DNA from: Octopus vulgaris
Taxonomy: Eukaryota
Length of the DNA: 64,000 nt
Assembly (NCBI GenBank): GCA_951406725.2
Contig: OX597829.1
Location: forward strand, 10,416,001 to 10,480,000
Reading direction: 5' to 3'
This document shows positions 24,521 to 63,432 of the stretch, one piece after another. A program made the translations under genes and the position numbers. Positions within the stretch are counted from its first letter, which is position 1. Every line of letters starts with the position of its first letter. The notes beneath the pieces were generated by a model. The model saw only the letters and a program-made list of their open reading frames with translations, did not search any database and was not told the origin of the DNA.

Positions 24521-24657
24521 CATACGTATATATTCACAATATATACGTGTATTATATATATATATATACCAGATACGCCGAAACAAAAAATTGTCGATAA
24601 CCATTAAATTTATGCGTCTCGAAACAAACCGATAGAAATCTCTACAAAATTCGTTAT

Positions 24658-24715
24658 TACCGTATTGGTCCAATTTCGGGGTTAATTCACAAGAAATTTC
24701 CCCCTCTTCAGCGGA
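24658..24715 (-). ncRNA. Type I hammerhead ribozyme motif
   Basis: CCG-CTGAAGA-GGGG..CCCC-GAAA-TTGGACCAA-TA-CGG on the minus strand. Confidence 0.75.
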
Positions 24716-24930
24716 AATTTTTTTTTATCCTATATCAATTATAAATAGATTAGTGTTCACTTCCGGATTCTATCACTCTGTGAAAGTTTCTAGTTCAAAT
24801 CACACGTGTCTCGAGGTGCGCCGACGATTTTTCTATTTTGGATATATTTGGGGTACTTAGGTCTGCTCGGGACATGGTGCTTGCTTCTTCCGTGGGTATG
24901 AATAAGTATTTCATTTATATCTCGCGTATG

Positions 24931-24989
24931 TGCCGCTGAAGAGGGGAAAATTTCTTATGAATTAACCCCGAAATTGGACCAATACGGTA
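24931..24989 (+). ncRNA. Type I hammerhead ribozyme motif, intact
   Basis: TGCCG-CTGAAGA-GGGG(aaaatttcttatgaattaa)CCCC-GAAA-TTGGACCAA-TA^CGGTA. Confidence 0.82.
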
Positions 24990-25112
24990 ATAACGAATTT
25001 TGTAGAGATTTCTATCGGTTTGTTTCGAGACGCATAAATTTAATGGTTATCGACAATTTTTTGTTTCGGCGTATCTGGCATTAGAATTTTTCTTCTGCCC
25101 TTATCTTGTAAA

Positions 25113-49600: not shown

Positions 49601-52600
49601 GCGGATAGGGATAGTGTAGGATGTCCACAATTTAAAATAGTCAGCTACACAGATCACAAATTTGTGACGTGTACGCTCGACTTAGATAAGACACATAGAC
49701 AGGGTCCCGGTTACTGGAAACTGAACACGTCGCTCTTAGCGCGACAGGTTTACAGGAACCGGATTAGCGAGTTAATTAAGAGGGCGCTGACGGGAGCCGT
49801 CCTCAACAACCGCTGGTGGTTCGCCCTGAAAATGGCAATAAAATCGGAATCAATTAGGTTTAGCAAGGAATTAGTGATAGATCGAAATAGAGTAGAGGGA
49901 GACTTGGTTAAGAAACTAGAAGAGGCACTTACCACTGGCAGCGCATCCAACGTGCTGGCTGCGAGGATGGTTCGACCAACACCTCAACGTCAAACACGAA
50001 GGTTGCGTCGTCAGAGCAAAAATGCGTGCCTTAAGGAACGAAGGGATCGAAGCTGCGTGAGAGGCCCGGGTAGCAGAGGCGCAACGTGGCAACAGAGCCA
50101 CCATTCGGTCTCTAATAGATCAACAGGGATGCAGTTTACTCGAACCCGAAAGGATGTGTGAGGCCATAGAACGGCACTTTGCTCGACTGTGTGGTGCGAG
50201 TGGTGGGTCGGAACGCGGGATGGATTTCAGTGCCTACCTGACCGACCTGCCGCGACTCTCGGCAAGAGAAGCGGAGTGTTGTGAAAGCCCCATCACAGCC
50301 GCTGACGTGCGGGATGCGATGGCGGGCTGCGCGAGGGATAAGTCGCCTGGATTGGATAGTTTACCATACGAGCTGTATTGTCAAATACCCGACTTGTTTG
50401 GCGACCTCTTGGCATCAGTCTACTGCAACTGGCAATAAAACGGGAGAATCCCCGGTTTCGTGAGCTGAGGTGCAGCGACGTTGCTAAAGAAAGACTCAAG
50501 CAAGGGGAATTTTATAGATAATTTCACGCCCATCACTCTGCTCAACGCAGATTTGAAAATTTTGGCCAAAGTAATACCCGAGAGGTTGGTGCATGTCATT
50601 GGTAAACTGGTCGACAGGGCGCAAACATGCGCCGTGCCGGCCAGAACCATACATGATAATCTCAATCTGATGCGCTACATTGTGGACATGGTAGTTAAGG
50701 ATCCTGGCATGGGTGGGGCGCTGATCAATTTGGATCAGTCTAAAGCCTTCGATAGGGTCGACCATCGGTACTTGGCGGCCGTCATCAGGGCGGCTGGTTT
50801 CGGTCCCGTCTTCCGCGGTTGGATCGCTGCCTTGTATAACGGCATCCGATCGGTGATTCGGATGAACGGTCACTTGTCGAAACCGTTTGACATTCACGCA
50901 TTCGCTCCGTCAGGGATGTCCCCTGTCGGCGCTTCTGTATGTATTGACTCTCGAGCCGCTACTGCGGAAGCTGGCGACACTAAGGGGATTCCCACGGACT
51001 ATGTCACTGTCATAATGTCAAGCGAAAAACACATCCAGATGATAGGCGAGACACTAAAAGAATACGAAACAGTGCGAAAATTAACCCGGAAAAGTAAGTG
51101 GGTTTGATACTCAGCACCTGGAGAAGCAAGCCCATACCATCCGACTGCGGCTCAGTAGTGGGACGCTGGACGGACGGACCGGTTAAATTGATCGGGGTCT
51201 GGTTCAGTCCGGACCTCCAAATGGATAAGAACTGGGACGAAATCACGAGTAGGGTGGTCGCTCTCAGCCAAACATGGGCCGAGAGAAAGCTGTCTCTAAA
51301 AGGTCGGGCGGAGGTGGCGAACGAGTACATCGCATCTGTCATCGATTACCGCCTGACCGTCGTACCTTGTCCCGACGCTACTATCACCAAACTGGAACGC
51401 ATACTCTTCCGCTTCCTGTGGAAGGGTGGCGTTCCGATGGTGAGGCGGTAAATTTGCTGTCAATATCCGTTAAATGGAGGAATGGGAATGCCGCGGTTGA
51501 TGATGCGCAGGCATGCGCTGAGACTGCGACATCTCTGGAACTTCATCGATGACGGTGAACAGGTGTGGGCGCCGTTTGTGAGGCGGGCCTTCCCGCAGCT
51601 TGTCTCACTGACCGAACTGCAAACGTGGATCAAGAAGAGACCGAAACTGGGCGATTGACACCGAGAGTGTCACCAAGCTCTACAGCAGCTCTGCCGACCG
51701 GGGTCAAACTTGTGCAACTTGCAAACGACTAAAGCGTTCTATAGAGGACTAGTGGAGGAGAGGTCCGACGACACACTCGGGGCAAACCTGGGCGTTGACG
51801 AGAAATTCCTAACCCGCCTGTTTAGGACGACGTTCGGGCCGGGGCCTATGGATAACTTTCAGAGATCCCTGGTTTGGCGTTGCTATCGAGACGCACTACC
51901 TGTTCGAGAGAAGAGCTACAGGCACGGTTCGAAAACCACCACCGGACCGACCTGCCCGAGATACTGTCAGAACGACGAAACCGTTCTGCACGCACTCGTG
52001 CAGTGTCCAGATATTTCAGAGCTGTGGACCTTCGTCGAACAGCTGTTGTCGCGTGTAGGACGGGCCCGCTTATCGGCCAAGTCTATCGTGAATATTGTTC
52101 CACCACCTTCCTTTAAACGAGAAGGGAAAACGGTTTTCGTTACGCTGATGGCTATGGCGAAAGAACGTGTGTGGTGGACGCGTTTGAAAGGACTGCAAAC
52201 AAACACCTTCCTCTCTGGTCTGTCTCTCGTCAACTTTTTCAAGTACCACTTGAAAAGGAGGATGAGAATAGAGAGGAAGTCTTTGTCGAACGAATGTTTT
52301 AATAAAAAGTGGGTAAAAGTGGCAAAAATGGTCAGTATGAAAGACGACACTATTTTAAGCGTAAATCTGTAACCAAAAGAGACAACGGGATGTAAGGTAA
52401 CTTACTCTTGTGTACATTTCGAACTGTCTAAGGTGACCTTGGTCTTTTTTGTAGGTTTTTCTTTCCAAGGCTACACCTAAACTGTGAACTTTATATATAT
52501 TGCTTTTTATACACCACATAACCCACAGATCCCTATTGATCGAACGTTTTTTCTTTGTGTGTCCCACCCATCTCACCTCGAAAAGAAAAATCTCTACATT

Positions 52601-52653
52601 GTATTTCGTCCATTTTTCTGTGTTTAGCCCTGTGTGGCCACAATAAAAAGTTA
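46671..52653 (+). mobile_element. Apparently full-length Tx1-type retrotransposon (copy C), many lesions
   Basis: ORF1 remnants 47041-48981 (MSRNFIVE.., ITIKNVPP), ORF2 remnants 48991-52372 colinear with copy A, 3' AATAAAAAGTT. Confidence 0.92.
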
Positions 52654-52665
52654 TCTATATATCTC

Positions 52666-53190
52666 ACAGCAGCCATATTCCTACCACTCTATGTCACGCT
52701 GGTGAGACCCATATTGGAGTATGGGATTCAAGCCTCTTCTCCTTATCTCCTCAAAGACATACAGCATCTCGAAAGAGTCCAGAAGCTGGCTACCCGCATG
52801 GTTCATGGTCTCAAAAATTTGTCCTACGAAGAAAGGCTGAGGACGCTCGACCTTTATTCTCTTGAAAAACGCCGCCGCCGTGGTGATCTCATTCTCGCCC
52901 AAAACATCATAAGCGGAAAGTGTAACCTCTCGAAAGAGCTGTTCTTCACTCCTGCTCCAGAGCGTCGGCTGCGGGGTCATTCCGAAAAGCTCTACCTGCG
53001 ACGATTTCATCTCAATCGAAGGAGAGGAGCTTTCTCCGTCCGGGTTGCGGATCCGTGGAACAAGCTGCCAGACGAGATGGTGAAGATGCCTGAACTCTTT
53101 ACATGAACACCACCCTGTACTTAACTCCATGTCCCCCTACATGGCCTTGCTATTTGCTTTTGAGCCAAATTAACTAACTAACTAACTAAC
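52666..53190 (+). mobile_element. CR1-group LINE 3' fragment with (TAAC)n tail
   Basis: LYVTLVRPILEYG..SPYL.KDI..LERVQK.ATRMV.GL..LSYEERL..L.LYSLE.RR.RGDLI..LRGH..F..RV...WN.LP; tail TAACTAACTAAC. Confidence 0.88.
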
Positions 53191-57543: not shown

Positions 57544-57660
57544 TGATAGAAGGAAAACAGAATTGATAGAACGAAAACAGAATTGATAGAAGGAAAACAG
57601 AATTGACAGAAGGAAAACAGAATTGATAGAAGGAAAACAGAATTGATAGAAGGAAAACAG
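57544..57660. repeat. 20-bp minisatellite (TGATAGAAGGAAAACAGAAT) x ~6
   Basis: Directly visible with two point variants. Confidence 0.92.
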
Positions 57661-58024: not shown

Positions 58025-58131
<107 letters not shown>

Positions 58132-58145
58132 GTATATATATATGT

Positions 58146-58602
58146 ATAGCTAACTTAAGGCGATGGCCTCATGGAGCTAATAAGCGGACAGCTTTATTCT
58201 TATTTTTATAAGAATGCCATATTAGTATGGCGATAACTATTATTTTCCAGGAACGCTGCCGTGATCTCTTTTAGAGAGACTTAGTAATTTTAATATTTCT
58301 ATTATTGAAAACAAGTGAATGTATTCCACCGAAGCTAGGTAAATAAAACCTTCGAACAGAGATTGTCGGAAGCGACACCTACTGGTCTGACTACGCTACA
58401 TTGAAAAGGGGCAATACCCCGAAACGCGTCTGTAGCTGTCGGTCAAGTAGTGTGGAGCGATTGACCTCCCTTGTTCGAAGGTTATATAGATACAGTTTGT
58501 GTATCAAATAGCTAACTTAAGGCGATGGCCTCATGGAGCTAATAAGTGGACAGCTTTATTCTTATTTTTATAAGAATGCCATATTAGTATGGCGATAACT
58601 AT

Positions 58603-58605
<3 letters not shown>
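58146..58605 (+). mobile_element. Retrozyme-like non-autonomous element: 362-bp unit plus 98-bp terminal redundancy, one HHR
   Basis: Direct repeats 58146-58243 and 58508-58605 (one mismatch); no plausible coding capacity; HHR at 58395-58436; (TA)-rich tracts on both sides. Confidence 0.75.
58395..58436 (+). ncRNA. Type I hammerhead ribozyme with U3:A8 core
   Basis: GCTACA-TTGAAAA-GGGG(caata)CCCC-GAAA-CGCG-TC^TGTAGC; perfect 6-bp stem I, GUC cleavage triplet. Confidence 0.85.
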
Positions 58606-58700
<95 letters not shown>

Positions 58701-58745
58701 AAACAAGTCAAAATAGAAAATGCTAAAATAATTTTATAAAGAACA

Positions 58746-58789
58746 TTTCAGTACCGTTTTCGGTCATTTTGAGACCTTTTCAACTGTAA
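58746..58789 (-). ncRNA. U3:A8 hammerhead in the inverted PLE terminal repeat, stem III mutated
   Basis: CAG-TTGAAAA-GGTC(tcaaaat)GACC-GAAA-ACGG-TA-CTG. Confidence 0.7.
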
Positions 58790-59409
58790 CGATTAAATAA
58801 TTAAATTTAGAAAAATTAGAAGAAAAGTTTTTTTAAAGGAATATTTGTATAGTAGTGTTCAAATATAAGTGGCATTCTGCCTTTCTCTGACTCCCTTGTT
58901 TGCACTTGTGTGTTCGAGGTCGTTGTGAATTCTTGGTAGGGTAGAAGAAGAAGAAGGCTGAAGAGGAGAGGGGGTGGAAAGATTTGGGAGTGCCTTGATT
59001 GTTGTATTTTGAATGGTCAGTGACGGCTAGCAGTTGCAGTTCAATTCAGGAGAATATTTCTATTGAGAGATTTGTTTATGGAATTTGCGTAGGTGTTTTA
59101 CTAAAAAGCATTAGTGATAAAGTTAAGAGGTAGAAGGTGGAGCAGAAGAAGAAGAAGAAGAAGAAGATGACGATGTTGATGATGATGATGATGATGAAGA
59201 AGAAGAAGAAGAAGAAGAAGAAGAAGAAGAAGAAGGAGAAGGAGAAGAAGAAGATGATGATGATGATGATGGTGGTGATGATGATGACGATGATGATGAT
59301 AATGATTTTGATGAAGAAGAAGAGGAAGAAGAAGAAAACAGAGAAGGGAGAATATGAATGGGTGAAAGTAGTGAGGTGTTGTATGACTTGAAGTTGGCAT
59401 GTTATGAAC

Positions 59410-59839
59410 CCTACGATACAGACTGATCTCTAGATATCCTATGACTAGGTTGGCAAAGGAGGGGGAGCATTCGTGTACCCATCGCAGTCGCCGATTTTTG
59501 TCGGTAGAAGTTGTCGTTGAAGGCGAAGAAGTTATTTTCCAGGATGAATTTAACCCCTTCTATCACGAATTCGTTTTTGATGCGATGTGGTAGTTCGTTG
59601 GCGTGATTCTCTAGCCAGAATTGGATTGCCTCTAGTCCTAGGTTGTGGGGGATATTGGAGTAGAGGTTGACTACATCGAAGGATACCAGTATGGTGTTTT
59701 TGTTTATAGTATTCGGTAGGTGATTGAGCATATCCAAGTCGTCCCTTATATAGCTTTTGACATGTTTGAGGAGTGGTTTTAACAGGGTGTCTAAAAAGTT
59801 ACTGAGGCGGTGGGTTTCGCATGCGGGACCTGCTATTAT
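59410..59839 (-). pseudogene. PLE RT fragment of the inverted copy
   Basis: IIAGPACETHRLSNFLD..LKP..SYIRD, LVSFDVVNLYSNIP, ILENNFFAFN, TAMGT; ends at an internal deletion. Confidence 0.88.
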
Positions 59840-61113
59840 GGGTTAAATTCATCCTGGAAAATAACTTCTTCGCCTTCAATGACAACTTCTACCGACAGAA
59901 ATCGGCGACTGCGATGGGTACACGAAATGCCCCCTCCTTTGCCAACCTAGTCATAGGATATCTAGAGATCAGTCTGTATCGTAGGCTTCTAGAAAGATAT
60001 GGCAGCCCTTTCTCCATCTACATAGAAAACAACTGGAAGAGATATCTAGATGACTGTTTCATCCTTTGGCATGAAAATATTGAGAAACTCATAGAATTCC
60101 AAGAAATTTTAAACGGACTGGACGTAAACATCCAATTCACGATGGAATACAGCCAGCAACAACCCCCCTTCCTCGATATCCTCATTAAGAAAGCTAATAA
60201 TGTAATAGAAACAGACATATATTATAAACCTACAGACTCTAAGCAATATCTTCCATTCAATTCATGCCACCCCAGACACACCAGGATGAATATCCCCTTC
60301 AATCTAGCAAAAAGGATATGCACTATAGTCTCTAATGCAAACACCAGAGACTCACGACTACAAGAACTAAAAGATACCCTTATCACCAGGAACTATCCAC
60401 CTTCACTTATTGACAAGTGCATTCAACTTGCACTTCAACTTAACATCAAGGAACTGAGACATCCCAAATCAAAGAAAAACTTACTACCAAAAGCCTTACC
60501 ATACATCTCCATACACAACCCTCTCAATAACGAAGCCTTCAGCACCATCCTCCACAACATACCCCTCCTAAAAAAAGACCACAAAATGAACACAATCCTC
60601 CAAACACACACGATCATAAAAAGCAAGAGACAGCCTAGATCCATGAAAAGTCTCCTAACACAAGCCCGAATTCACTCTTCAACACAGAAGCCGACAGTAA
60701 AAAAATGTGGAAGACCCAATTGCGGGATATGCGACTATCTAATTGAGGGATCAGAGTTCTCCTTCAAACAGGGACAACGGTTCACAGTGAAAAGCAACTT
60801 CACATGTGTTTCGGAGAACCTAATATACTCACTAACCTGCTCCGGGTGTCAAGAGCAGTACGTAGGCCAAACAAAAAATAGTTTGCGTAAAAGAATGGCC
60901 CTGCACAGATCCCAGATAAAAATTCCCCAAAACAGAAAAATAGCTTTCAGCCAACACATAGATACTTGCGCCAACAACAAAACACCAGGCTTCAGGATTT
61001 TCCCCCTCTACCAATTTAGGGACGATACAACCTCGAGACAACGAATAAGTAAAGAAACTCTCTTTATTACAAAATACAGGCCACTTCTTAACGGATCTAC
61101 GACAAACGATTAA
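59840..61113 (+). CDS. PLE ORF C-terminal ~420 aa, open but 5'-truncated: RT palm/thumb, Cys linker, GIY-YIG endonuclease
   Basis: AMGT..APSFANL, WKRYLDD, FLDI, YYKPT, SCHP, KCGRPNCGIC, NLIYSLTCSGC..QYVGQT, R..H, E..FI, LN; the ATG at 59821 comes from the inverted copy and is not a native start. Confidence 0.88.
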
Positions 61114-61813
61114 TATACCTCAACTTTAGAATAAAAGAAATACACACACAAATATTACATTCCAAAGAATCCATTACTAATCAGCCCCAATCACAGCTAT
61201 AATCCATAACATGCCAACTTCAAGTCATACAACACCTCACTACTTTCACCCATTCATATTCTCCCTTCTCTGTTTTCTTCTTCTTCCTCTTCTTCTTCAT
61301 CATCATCATTATCATCATCATCGTCATCATCATCACCACCATCATCATCATCATCTTCTTCTTCTCCTTCTCCTTCTTCTTCTTCTTCTTCTTCTTCTTC
61401 TTCTTCATCATCATCATCATCATCAACATCGTCATCTTCTTTCTTCTTCTTCTTCTTCTTCTGCTCCACCTTCTACCTCTTAACTTTATCACTAATGATT
61501 TTTAGTAAAACACCTACGCAAATTCCATAAACAAATCTCTCAATAGAAATATTCTCCTGAATTGAACTGCAACTGCTAGCCGTCACTGACCATTCAAAAT
61601 ACAACAATCAAGGCACTCCCAAATCTTTCCACCCCCTCTCCTCTTCAGCCTTCTTCTTCTACCCTACCAAGAATTCACAACGACCTCGAACACACAAGTG
61701 CAAACAAGGGAGTCAGAGAAAGGCAGAATGCCACTTATATTTGAACACTACTATACAAATATTCCTTTAAAAAAACTTTTCTTCTAATTTTTCTAAATTT
61801 AATTATTTAATCG

Positions 61814-61857
61814 TTACAGTTGAAAAGGTCTCAAAATGACCGAAACCGGTACTGAAA
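61814..61857 (+). ncRNA. U3:A8 hammerhead in the PLE 3' terminal repeat
   Basis: CAG-TTGAAAA-GGTC(tcaaaat)GACC-GAAA-CCGG-TA^CTG; palindromic stem III. Confidence 0.8.
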
Positions 61858-61935
61858 TGTTCTTTATAAAATTATTTTAGCATTTTCTATTTTGACTTGT
61901 TTTTTTATATATATCAACTCGTGTGTTCCTTTTCA

Positions 61936-61986
<51 letters not shown>

Positions 61987-62204: not shown

Positions 62205-62566
62205 CAAAAAATAGTTTGCGTAAAAGAATGGCCCTGCACAGATCCCAGATAAAAATTCCCCAAAACAGAAAAATAGCTTTCAGCCAACACATAGATACTT
62301 GCGCCAACAACAAAACACCAGGCTTCAGGATTTTCCCCCTCTACCAATTTAGGGACGATACAACCTCTTGGTAGGGTAGAAGAAGAAGAAGGCTGAAGAG
62401 GAGAGGGGGTGGAAAGATTTGGAAGTGCCTTGGTTGTTGTATTTTGAATGGTCAGTGACGGCTAGCAGTTGCAGTTCAATTCAGGAGAATATTTCTATTG
62501 AGAGATTTGTTTATGGAATTTGCGTAGGTGTTTTACTAAAAAGCATTAGTGATAAAGTTAAGAGGT
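62205..62566. mobile_element. Third rearranged fragment of the same Neptune PLE
   Basis: 62205-62346 copies ~60873-61034 (+); ~62347-62566 copies ~58933-59132, i.e. the 3'UTR in inverted orientation. Confidence 0.85.
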
Positions 62567-63432
62567 ACAAGGGGGAGCAGGTAGAAGCTGAAATGCGAAA
62601 AAGTTGGTTTCTTGGTTGTTTGTCTCATTTAAGAGGTGGTAGATGGAGTCGGATTGGCGCGAAATTTTACAGAGAGATGTAAAAAGAGACGAGAATGCAA
62701 CTGGACTAGGTTAGAAACCTCTATCTCAAAAGCTGTGGTTACTAGGGCAACAAAACCCAGACTTTGACAAGTGTTTGTCGTTTCTCTTTTTCGGATATCA
62801 CTCTGTCTTCCTCGATCTCTCTCTTTCCTTCCTTCCCTCCACATTCTCTCTATAACGACATTTGACACATTCCACCCTCATTCCCTCTCCGCCTTCGCCG
62901 TCTCTCTGTTACTCTTTCTCCCACTACCTCTCTCACTGTACTTCTGTCTGTATCTATAGAGAGAAAGCGTTAACAGCCGAAAAAGTTTTAATATTCCTGC
63001 CACAGGTCTTTTAGAACGGTGAATTATTATCGCCCACCACCACCGCACAATCATAACAGATATTACTAATCAGATATGTTCTGTTAATCAATATCTATAT
63101 AGCTGAAATGCGAAAAAGTTGTTTAATTTCTTGGTTATTTGTCTCATTTGGGGATGGGAACGGTTGAAGGGGCAGTAGATTGGGTCGGGTTGGTGCCAAA
63201 ATTTGCAAAATGGGGTGGGCAATAGTGTGAGGAGGGTTGCGAGTCGCTCGGGGCTACAGTCTGGTTGCCATGGTTAAAGTAGCTAGGGTTGTCTTTTTAC
63301 AAAAGTGAAAGGATTTTGTCTATTTATTTTGACAGTGATTAAATTGACGCGGAACACTGTACCAATTAAGCAACCTAAACCGTCCAAACAACGGGTGCGT
63401 TTGCTGGTATATAATATATTATATATATATAT

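Follow-up and report, generated by a model that had tools for sequence, protein, structure and literature searches.

A retrozyme and a Penelope-like element with the same variant hammerhead core are probably separate insertions into one (TA)n tract of the Octopus vulgaris genome

The analysed stretch of Octopus vulgaris DNA (assembly GCA_951406725.2, contig OX597829.1, positions 10,416,001 to 10,480,000; 64,000 nucleotides, referred to as the window) carries two neighbouring mobile elements, a small non-coding repeat of the retrozyme type and a Penelope-like element (PLE), whose hammerhead ribozyme motifs read UUGAAAA at the core, that is, with a U3:A8 pair in place of the canonical C3:G8. An earlier, sequence-only reading of the window had taken this shared core as a link between the two elements. 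The locus probably consists of two separate insertions, a two-armed Neptune-like PLE and a one-armed retrozyme with a 362-nt unit, that share a (TA)n tract in tail-to-tail orientation; both were likely written by a Penelope-type endonuclease/reverse transcriptase (RT), with the shared U3:A8 pair as a genome-wide trait and not the badge of a partnership. This explanation draws on the observed family structure, core state, termini and targets of the elements and on the observed lack of specific co-location. The features of the locus, in window coordinates, are the following.

58028-58145, no strand: (TA)n target tract to the left of the retrozyme, read from the sequence
58146-58608, plus strand: retrozyme insertion of the type without long terminal repeats (non-LTR), 1.28 copies of a 362-nt unit, defined by direct repeats and family comparison
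58395-58436, plus strand: type I hammerhead of the retrozyme, core UUGAAAA at 58401-58407, predicted cut after 58430 (GUC)
58608-58697, no strand: (TA)n remnant separating the two facing 3' ends, read from the sequence
58698-59843, minus strand: left (inverted) PLE arm, an RT piece (59405-59843) and a copy of the 3' untranslated region (UTR; 58698-59405) joined across an internal deletion, with the short end at 58698
58752-58791, minus strand: second copy of the PLE hammerhead, core at 58777-58783, helix III insert ACGG, palindrome broken
59844-61113, plus strand: right PLE arm, a 5'-truncated open reading frame (ORF) with the C-terminal part of the RT, a CX4CxxC linker and a GIY-YIG endonuclease
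61114-61905, plus strand: PLE 3' UTR/pseudo-LTR with a (TTC)n/(ATC)n tract, stopping at the short end
61812-61860, plus strand: minimal type I hammerhead of the PLE, core UUGAAAA at 61820-61826, predicted cut after 61851 (GUA)
61906-61938, plus strand: PLE 'tail' of about 33 nt, in the right arm only, followed by (TA)n
62205-62580, no strand: extra PLE fragment, an endonuclease piece (plus strand, equal to 60872-61034) fused to an inverted 3' UTR piece

Positions 58698-61938 correspond to a single two-armed PLE insertion, and the tract that separates it from the retrozyme agrees with the spacer of about 90 bp of (TA)n described before. The chimeric fragment at 62205-62580 lies 270 nt from the main PLE insertion, to which it is 98-100% identical.

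After each of the three TTGAAAA cores come a 4-bp stem II, GAAA and a 4-nt insert, in agreement with the coordinates and build given in the sequence-only reading. The heptamer alone occurs in the window at chance level (63 matches against 65.9 expected), so it is the full hammerhead topology that counts, and a full-topology descriptor retrieved from the 64 kb only two U3:A8 and two C3:G8 motifs. The PLE arms 58689-58974 and 61629-61914 are complementary at 96%; therefore both PLE motifs belong to one inverted insertion, one to each arm, which leaves two independent motifs and not three with unrelated stems, as had been claimed. In the left-arm copy ACGG replaces CCGG, the helix III palindrome is lost and the copy does not pass the descriptor. 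Apart from helix III of that copy, the motifs show the build of a type I hammerhead (three helices, core N3 U4 G5 A6 N7 N8 A9 / GAAA / UH, stem I open), and both families have a Watson-Crick 3/8 pair. The retrozyme motif found no match in an Rfam search at E<=5 and the PLE motif scored 20.9 bits, below the gathering score of 52, an outcome expected because the core is a variant and one that bears out the earlier statement that canonical descriptors miss U3:A8.

The retrozyme unit (362 nt) is non-coding, has a GC content of 0.40 and gives z = -6.0 for its circular fold (60 shuffles). At the locus it is recognized by direct repeats (58146-58246 and 58508-58608, 2 mismatches in 101) and forms a one-armed insertion of the young subfamily that stops at the family's short end. 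Its hammerhead combines a 6-bp stem I prolonged by an extended bulged helix, a stem II GGGG/CCCC, a loop CAAUA and a palindromic helix III ACGCGU, which is predicted to be able to give a 6-bp helix III in a homodimer. The family is dispersed over many contigs (1781 first-look candidates) and reaches five units in tandem. A 31-nt pattern with positions 3, 7 and 8 left free has 321 exact matches in the genome, and all 100 matches listed are U3:A8. Among 113 in-register copies from 63 loci (three of 116 rows were left out as out of register) 109 carry U3:A8 and none C3:G8, and the four remaining copies also look indel-shifted, while N7 is free to vary (57 C, 55 A, 1 U). The core and the stems are kept in two subfamilies about 13% apart, a young one (40 loci, 97.5% pairwise identity) and an older one (30 loci, 87%). 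In contigs from four sequencing runs, whose types are only guessed (three as RNA, one untyped), the unit is covered in pieces with no joints, and no alternative letter appears at 58401 or 58406 at a 10% share. With a non-coding unit within 170-400 nt, one type I hammerhead, tandem and dispersed copies, low GC and strong self-pairing, the element fits, as judged from its sequence, the non-LTR retrozymes of PMC7229834.

The neighbouring PLE, denoted PLE-A, retains in the ORF of its right arm the end of the RT, the linker CGRPNCGIC (CX4CxxC) and a GIY-YIG domain with CxxC between the GIY and YIG motifs. It thus shows the attributes of an endonuclease-positive (EN+) PLE, namely an RT with C-terminal GIY-YIG, the CCHH and DKG motifs, a pseudo-LTR with a hammerhead, an inverted truncated copy and a one-sided tail. 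The linker conforms to CX2-5CxxC, which is defined for Neptune and also found in Nematis (PMC8557442), and the 82 homologues found carry no clade name; the linker indicates a Neptune- or Nematis-type element, for which the name Neptune is likely. The PLE-A hammerhead has a short stem I, a stem II GGUC/GACC and a palindromic helix III ACCGGU. A 34-nt pattern of the family gives 1869 exact genome matches, and among the 100 matches listed 99 are U3:A8 and one is U3.G8, so that in PLE-A as in the retrozyme U3:A8 is a conserved trait of the family. The full-length copy L062 repeats its 3' end (3' UTR/pseudo-LTR) at its 5' end.

The frequency of the variant was estimated with sequence patterns over the 2.8-Gb genome, with reversed patterns as controls. 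In the class with a 4-nt S-rich insert, 7711 U3:A8 and 261 C3:G8 matches were obtained (controls 186 and 68) together with 924 mismatched 3/8 cores (8896 - 7711 - 261), so that matched pairs exceed mismatches about 9 to 1. Without the limit on helix III the counts are 31041 and 21174 (controls 12976 and 3348), or about 18,000 of each. An excess of 30 to 1 of U3:A8 over C3:G8 across the genome was rejected, since it is true only of the 4-nt S-rich class and the two are near equal once that limit is lifted. The variant, which the sequence-only reading had called uncommon, thus represents about half of the hammerhead-like motifs here.

A hand count of the first 100 U3:A8 matches of the 4-nt class gave 38 PLE-A and 15 retrozyme copies, the remainder belonging to other families. 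Several of these other motifs sit behind PLE ORFs that are 48-58% identical in protein to PLE-A, and in a quick tree the U3:A8 PLEs (lineages A, B-E and F) fall on one branch (support of 97 in the Shimodaira-Hasegawa-like approximate likelihood-ratio test). The census therefore finds U3:A8 in both families of the locus and also in PLE lineages B-E and F and in other repeats, so that it is not specific to the pair. Around other motif families (20 stretches, 14 with canonical cores and 6 with U3:A8) a PLE protein was present in only one, a U3:A8 family. A direct-repeat pair of hammerheads (L061), considered as a full-length element, was rejected and corresponds to two solo ends.

A second retrozyme, with a 359-nt unit and 337 matches (L169-L218; for instance G000:C1:20002279, C1:23282298 and C4:80857197), holds three core states: 48 U3:A8, 43 C3:G8 and 9 C3.A8 by hand count among the 100 matches listed, in copies 83-94% identical. 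One lineage can thus switch the state of its 3/8 pair. A tree built from 37 of the 38 loci of this retrozyme after masking both core letters unites every C3 copy in a single branch (100/99); U3:A8 comes out as basal with midpoint rooting only. The mismatched C3.A8 subfamily (6 loci in the tree), which is young and occurs in tandems, may represent an intermediate or else the result of CpG decay of C3:G8. From these data we put forward, tentatively and with more doubt than confidence, that U3:A8 marks the core in about half of the roughly 35,000 hammerhead-like motifs, that it is ancestral to a Neptune-like PLE clade and to several retrozymes riding on it, and that it may turn into canonical C3:G8 via a C3.A8 state that still transposes. 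No account of U3:A8 abundance in cephalopod genomes was found in the literature search, which lay outside most subscription journals and all supplementary files, whose family tables may already list such motifs.

Other members of this collection differ in structure. In a very abundant U3:A8 family (L143-L146) a bulged G precedes the 5-bp stem II and a palindromic helix III is lacking, and the four stretches fetched for it contained no PLE ORF. Lineage B-E hammerheads (G000:C1:644920, C1:7828096 and similar) have a stem II of 1-2 bp, some with a tandem core-like heptamer; their activity is doubtful, or would be protein-assisted. The full-length PLE-A copy in L062 and the B-E element directly behind it each have an upstream ORF of 410-450 aa (L062:4860-6086 and L062:183-1526, both minus strand) that overlaps or abuts the RT-endonuclease ORF in another frame; a Pfam search of these ORFs gave nothing below E 0.1. 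A single ORF is what descriptions of canonical EN+ PLEs report. At L062:1783 the PLE-A 3' end is fused without (TA)n to the 5' pseudo-LTR of the B-E element, possibly through a template jump between PLE families or a nested insertion.

The retrozyme copies share with PLEs a characteristic insertion footprint. At 62 other retrozyme loci, 37 insertions have two arms that pair a short with a tail end, 17 have a single arm and 8 are of other kinds; the 3' ends are of two fixed types without poly(A), and 83 of 108 run into (TA)n. The same pairing of a short with a tail end was seen in 7/7 two-armed PLE-A loci taken from position lists, and both ends occur in all PLE lineages examined. The preference for (TA)n earlier ascribed to both elements is confirmed in both families. 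The purified protein of a lizard PLE cuts and extends both strands of AT-rich DNA in vitro, starts reverse transcription at two internal sites whose spacing equals the tail, and still inserts when its hammerhead is mutated (PMC11167929). Because the retrozyme copies carry the PLE footprint, they are likely mobilised in trans by a Neptune-like PLE RT/endonuclease. The proposal of the sequence-only reading that a PLE RT and GIY-YIG mobilise the small RNA is to that extent favoured.

In such a mechanism the GIY-YIG endonuclease would nick both strands of AT-rich DNA and each nicked end would serve as primer for reverse transcription from either of two fixed start positions inside the RNA, the short end and the tail end, which are spaced by about 60 nt in the retrozyme and about 33 nt in the PLE; back-to-back arms would be the outcome. 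Since both start sites lie downstream of the predicted hammerhead cut and the copies run back across it (in tandems), a circular RNA or an uncut multimer would have served as template. Each hammerhead may cut best as a homodimer via its own palindromic helix III, and a slow core could have been favoured since PLE enzymes would need uncut or circular templates spanning the cut site. The enzyme may come from lineage A, B-E or F; by abundance the lineage of the neighbour is the likeliest single candidate, with nothing that singles it out.

A closer link between the retrozyme and PLE-A through the U3:A8 core, as first claimed, is not supported by the sequence comparisons, given that the core is found in three PLE lineages and in other repeats and switches in the second retrozyme. 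No significant homology was detected between the retrozyme and nine PLE library pieces (blastn, best E = 0.38); at the hammerhead it is more similar to the second retrozyme (80% over 35 nt, E = 0.003). By inspection, the helix III palindromes ACGCGU and ACCGGU would leave two central mispairs in a heterodimer. As for the marks of a dedicated pair, no shared terminal sequence or family-specific signal was found; a common target and an overlapping period of activity were, and lineage B-E has them too. PLE-A copies are 98.0% identical pairwise (24 top hits) and B-E pairs reach 99.1%, and with young copies in both lineages age does not name the partner.

The geometry of the locus indicates two events. 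The 3' ends of two-armed insertions point outwards, and here the 3' end of the retrozyme and that of the left PLE arm face each other over (TA)n; as both 3' ends face the same tract, two events hit one target. Co-insertion as one cDNA was rejected on the grounds that each element has its own ends and both 3' ends face the same tract. No young PLE-A copy was found at 26 top-hit retrozyme loci (±1.5 kb) or at 36 position-list loci (±5 kb), that is, in 0/62 in total, nor was the retrozyme found in any of 47 PLE-A stretches. A retrozyme end faces a PLE-A end within 130 nt at five places in the genome, including this locus, the other four being also tail to tail. The same test with lineage B/C ends gave two places for elements about a quarter as frequent (10 against 38 in the first 100 matches), so adjacency follows in proportion and neither the joint insertion considered in the sequence-only reading nor a specific co-occurrence of the two families is upheld. 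The only direct retrozyme-PLE junction seen lies at L118:3322-4720, where an old retrozyme copy is fused to a PLE RT piece, with the junction duplicated and inverted; the PLE piece is nearer to lineage B-E (85%) than to A (77-79%).

Several observations weigh against two unrelated insertions. The age comparison called for earlier shows the young retrozyme copies (97.5%) and PLE-A (98.0%) overlapping, which a true pair would also show. Old PLE-A-like ends (72-78%) lie within 5 kb of three retrozyme loci, at 204 and 351 nt in two of them. The five facing pairs, all on one strand, exceed a rough expectation of 0.6-2.6 based on tract densities and estimated copy numbers. In the first 133 Mb of C1, PLE-A occurs within 100 kb of 5/18 retrozyme loci (1.9 expected, p = 0.036), with none within 5 kb and a median distance giving p = 0.18. 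In addition, the genome-wide patterns skip base pairing, so chance matches are among their counts, and reversing the pattern makes a crude control. A common taste for long (TA)n tracts explains the facing pairs and the proximity on C1 without any special pair, though there may be a mild excess.

The reading of the retrozyme as a dedicated non-autonomous partner of PLE-A, with a core kept by common descent or co-adaptation and an occasional joint insertion, would account for the same core, the same target, the overlapping ages and the five facing pairs, and it gains from PLE-A being the most abundant element of its class and from Xenopus, where 24/57 retrozyme families match known elements and PLEs make up 21 of 22 (10.64898/2026.07.22.740005). 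We consider it unlikely, however, since lineages B-F have this core as well and it is labile elsewhere, the sequences are not homologous, the hammerheads are of different classes with palindromes that mispair, the geometry is tail to tail and the lone direct junction is closer to B-E. Spread by another retroelement, such as a long interspersed nuclear element (LINE), or by duplication at the DNA level, with the PLE likeness incidental, would suit a unit devoid of PLE-derived sequence, and PMC7229834 keeps LINEs as possible mobilisers; the two fixed 3' ends without poly(A), the back-to-back arms and the (TA)n targets instead form the PLE pattern seen here and in PMC8557442, and with copies scattered over many contigs this route appears very improbable.

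Whether or not the locus consists of two separate insertions, the U3:A8 motifs could be dead relics of AT-biased drift that are passively carried, a view that concerns activity only and is compatible with that account. It would agree with the continued amplification of the mismatched C3.A8 subfamily, with the 924 mismatched cores and with the insertion in vitro of PLEs with mutated hammerheads (PMC11167929). The relic view seems improbable given that two retrozyme subfamilies differing by about 13% have kept the core and the stems with N7 left free, that matched pairs are in excess, and that natural U3-A8 hammerheads are reported as active in vitro (PMC3088659).

Elsewhere in the window, positions 24560-25080 are occupied by a two-armed inverted element of another abundant family that sits in (TA)n; its hammerheads have the canonical core CUGAAGA, loop 2 is long and the helix III insert measures 9 nt. 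A minisatellite with a 20-bp period (about 6 copies) occupies 57544-57660, and two open frames at 51659-53106 resemble what we take to be C-terminal pieces of a LINE RT ORF.

The variant, the element classes and the mobilisation hypothesis were all known before. U3-A8 minimal hammerheads have been described in Cercyon PLEs of Schistosoma mansoni, with about 1,300 matches against about 2,000 canonical ones (PMC4209133, 2014), and mobilisation of retrozymes by PLEs was proposed in 2020 (PMC7229834) and argued from Xenopus in 2026 (bioRxiv 10.64898/2026.07.22.740005). With the specific partnership unsupported, what remains of interest is how widespread U3:A8 is in this genome, together with the stepwise switch of the second retrozyme. 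The enzyme that mobilises animal retrozymes has so far only been proposed, and for the 362-nt family the start points are mapped and the candidate PLE lineages number three. Elements must not be paired on the strength of a shared variant core, and hammerhead counts restricted to CUGANGA can be about half the real number; if U3:A8 were indeed ancestral and the core of about half of the motifs, censuses with canonical descriptors would miss half of the ribozymes of such an animal.

Compared with the metazoan non-LTR retrozymes of Cervera & de la Pena (2020, PMC7229834), such as the mussel repeats of 350-390 bp and those of axolotl (330/350 bp), the octopus unit is alike in its low GC, its non-coding nature, its single type I hammerhead per unit, its partial tandems, its strong self-pairing and its short palindromic helix III. 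It differs from them in its U3:A8 core and in its two-armed insertions of the PLE type with two fixed ends. The Cercyon PLEs (Cervera & de la Pena 2014, PMC4209133) show the same covariation in a pseudo-LTR hammerhead, and a canonical descriptor misses both; the octopus PLE differs in its 4-bp stem II, 2-bp palindromic helix III and Neptune/Nematis-type linker, in being part of a whole clade of families and in sharing the core with retrozymes. With the Neptune/Nematis EN+ PLEs (PMC8557442) it has in common the RT, the CX2-5CxxC linker, the C-terminal GIY-YIG with CCHH, the pseudo-LTR hammerhead, the inverted truncated copy, the one-sided tail and the microsatellite targets, whereas the octopus copy L062 carries in addition an upstream ORF (about 410 aa, different frame). 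The Xenopus retrozymes, regarded as non-autonomous PLE derivatives (10.64898/2026.07.22.740005), share with the octopus family the proposed mobilisation by PLEs and the co-occurrence in one genome. Many of them match PLE termini, whereas the octopus retrozyme lacks homology to any PLE end tested and is tied to these elements by its insertion footprint.

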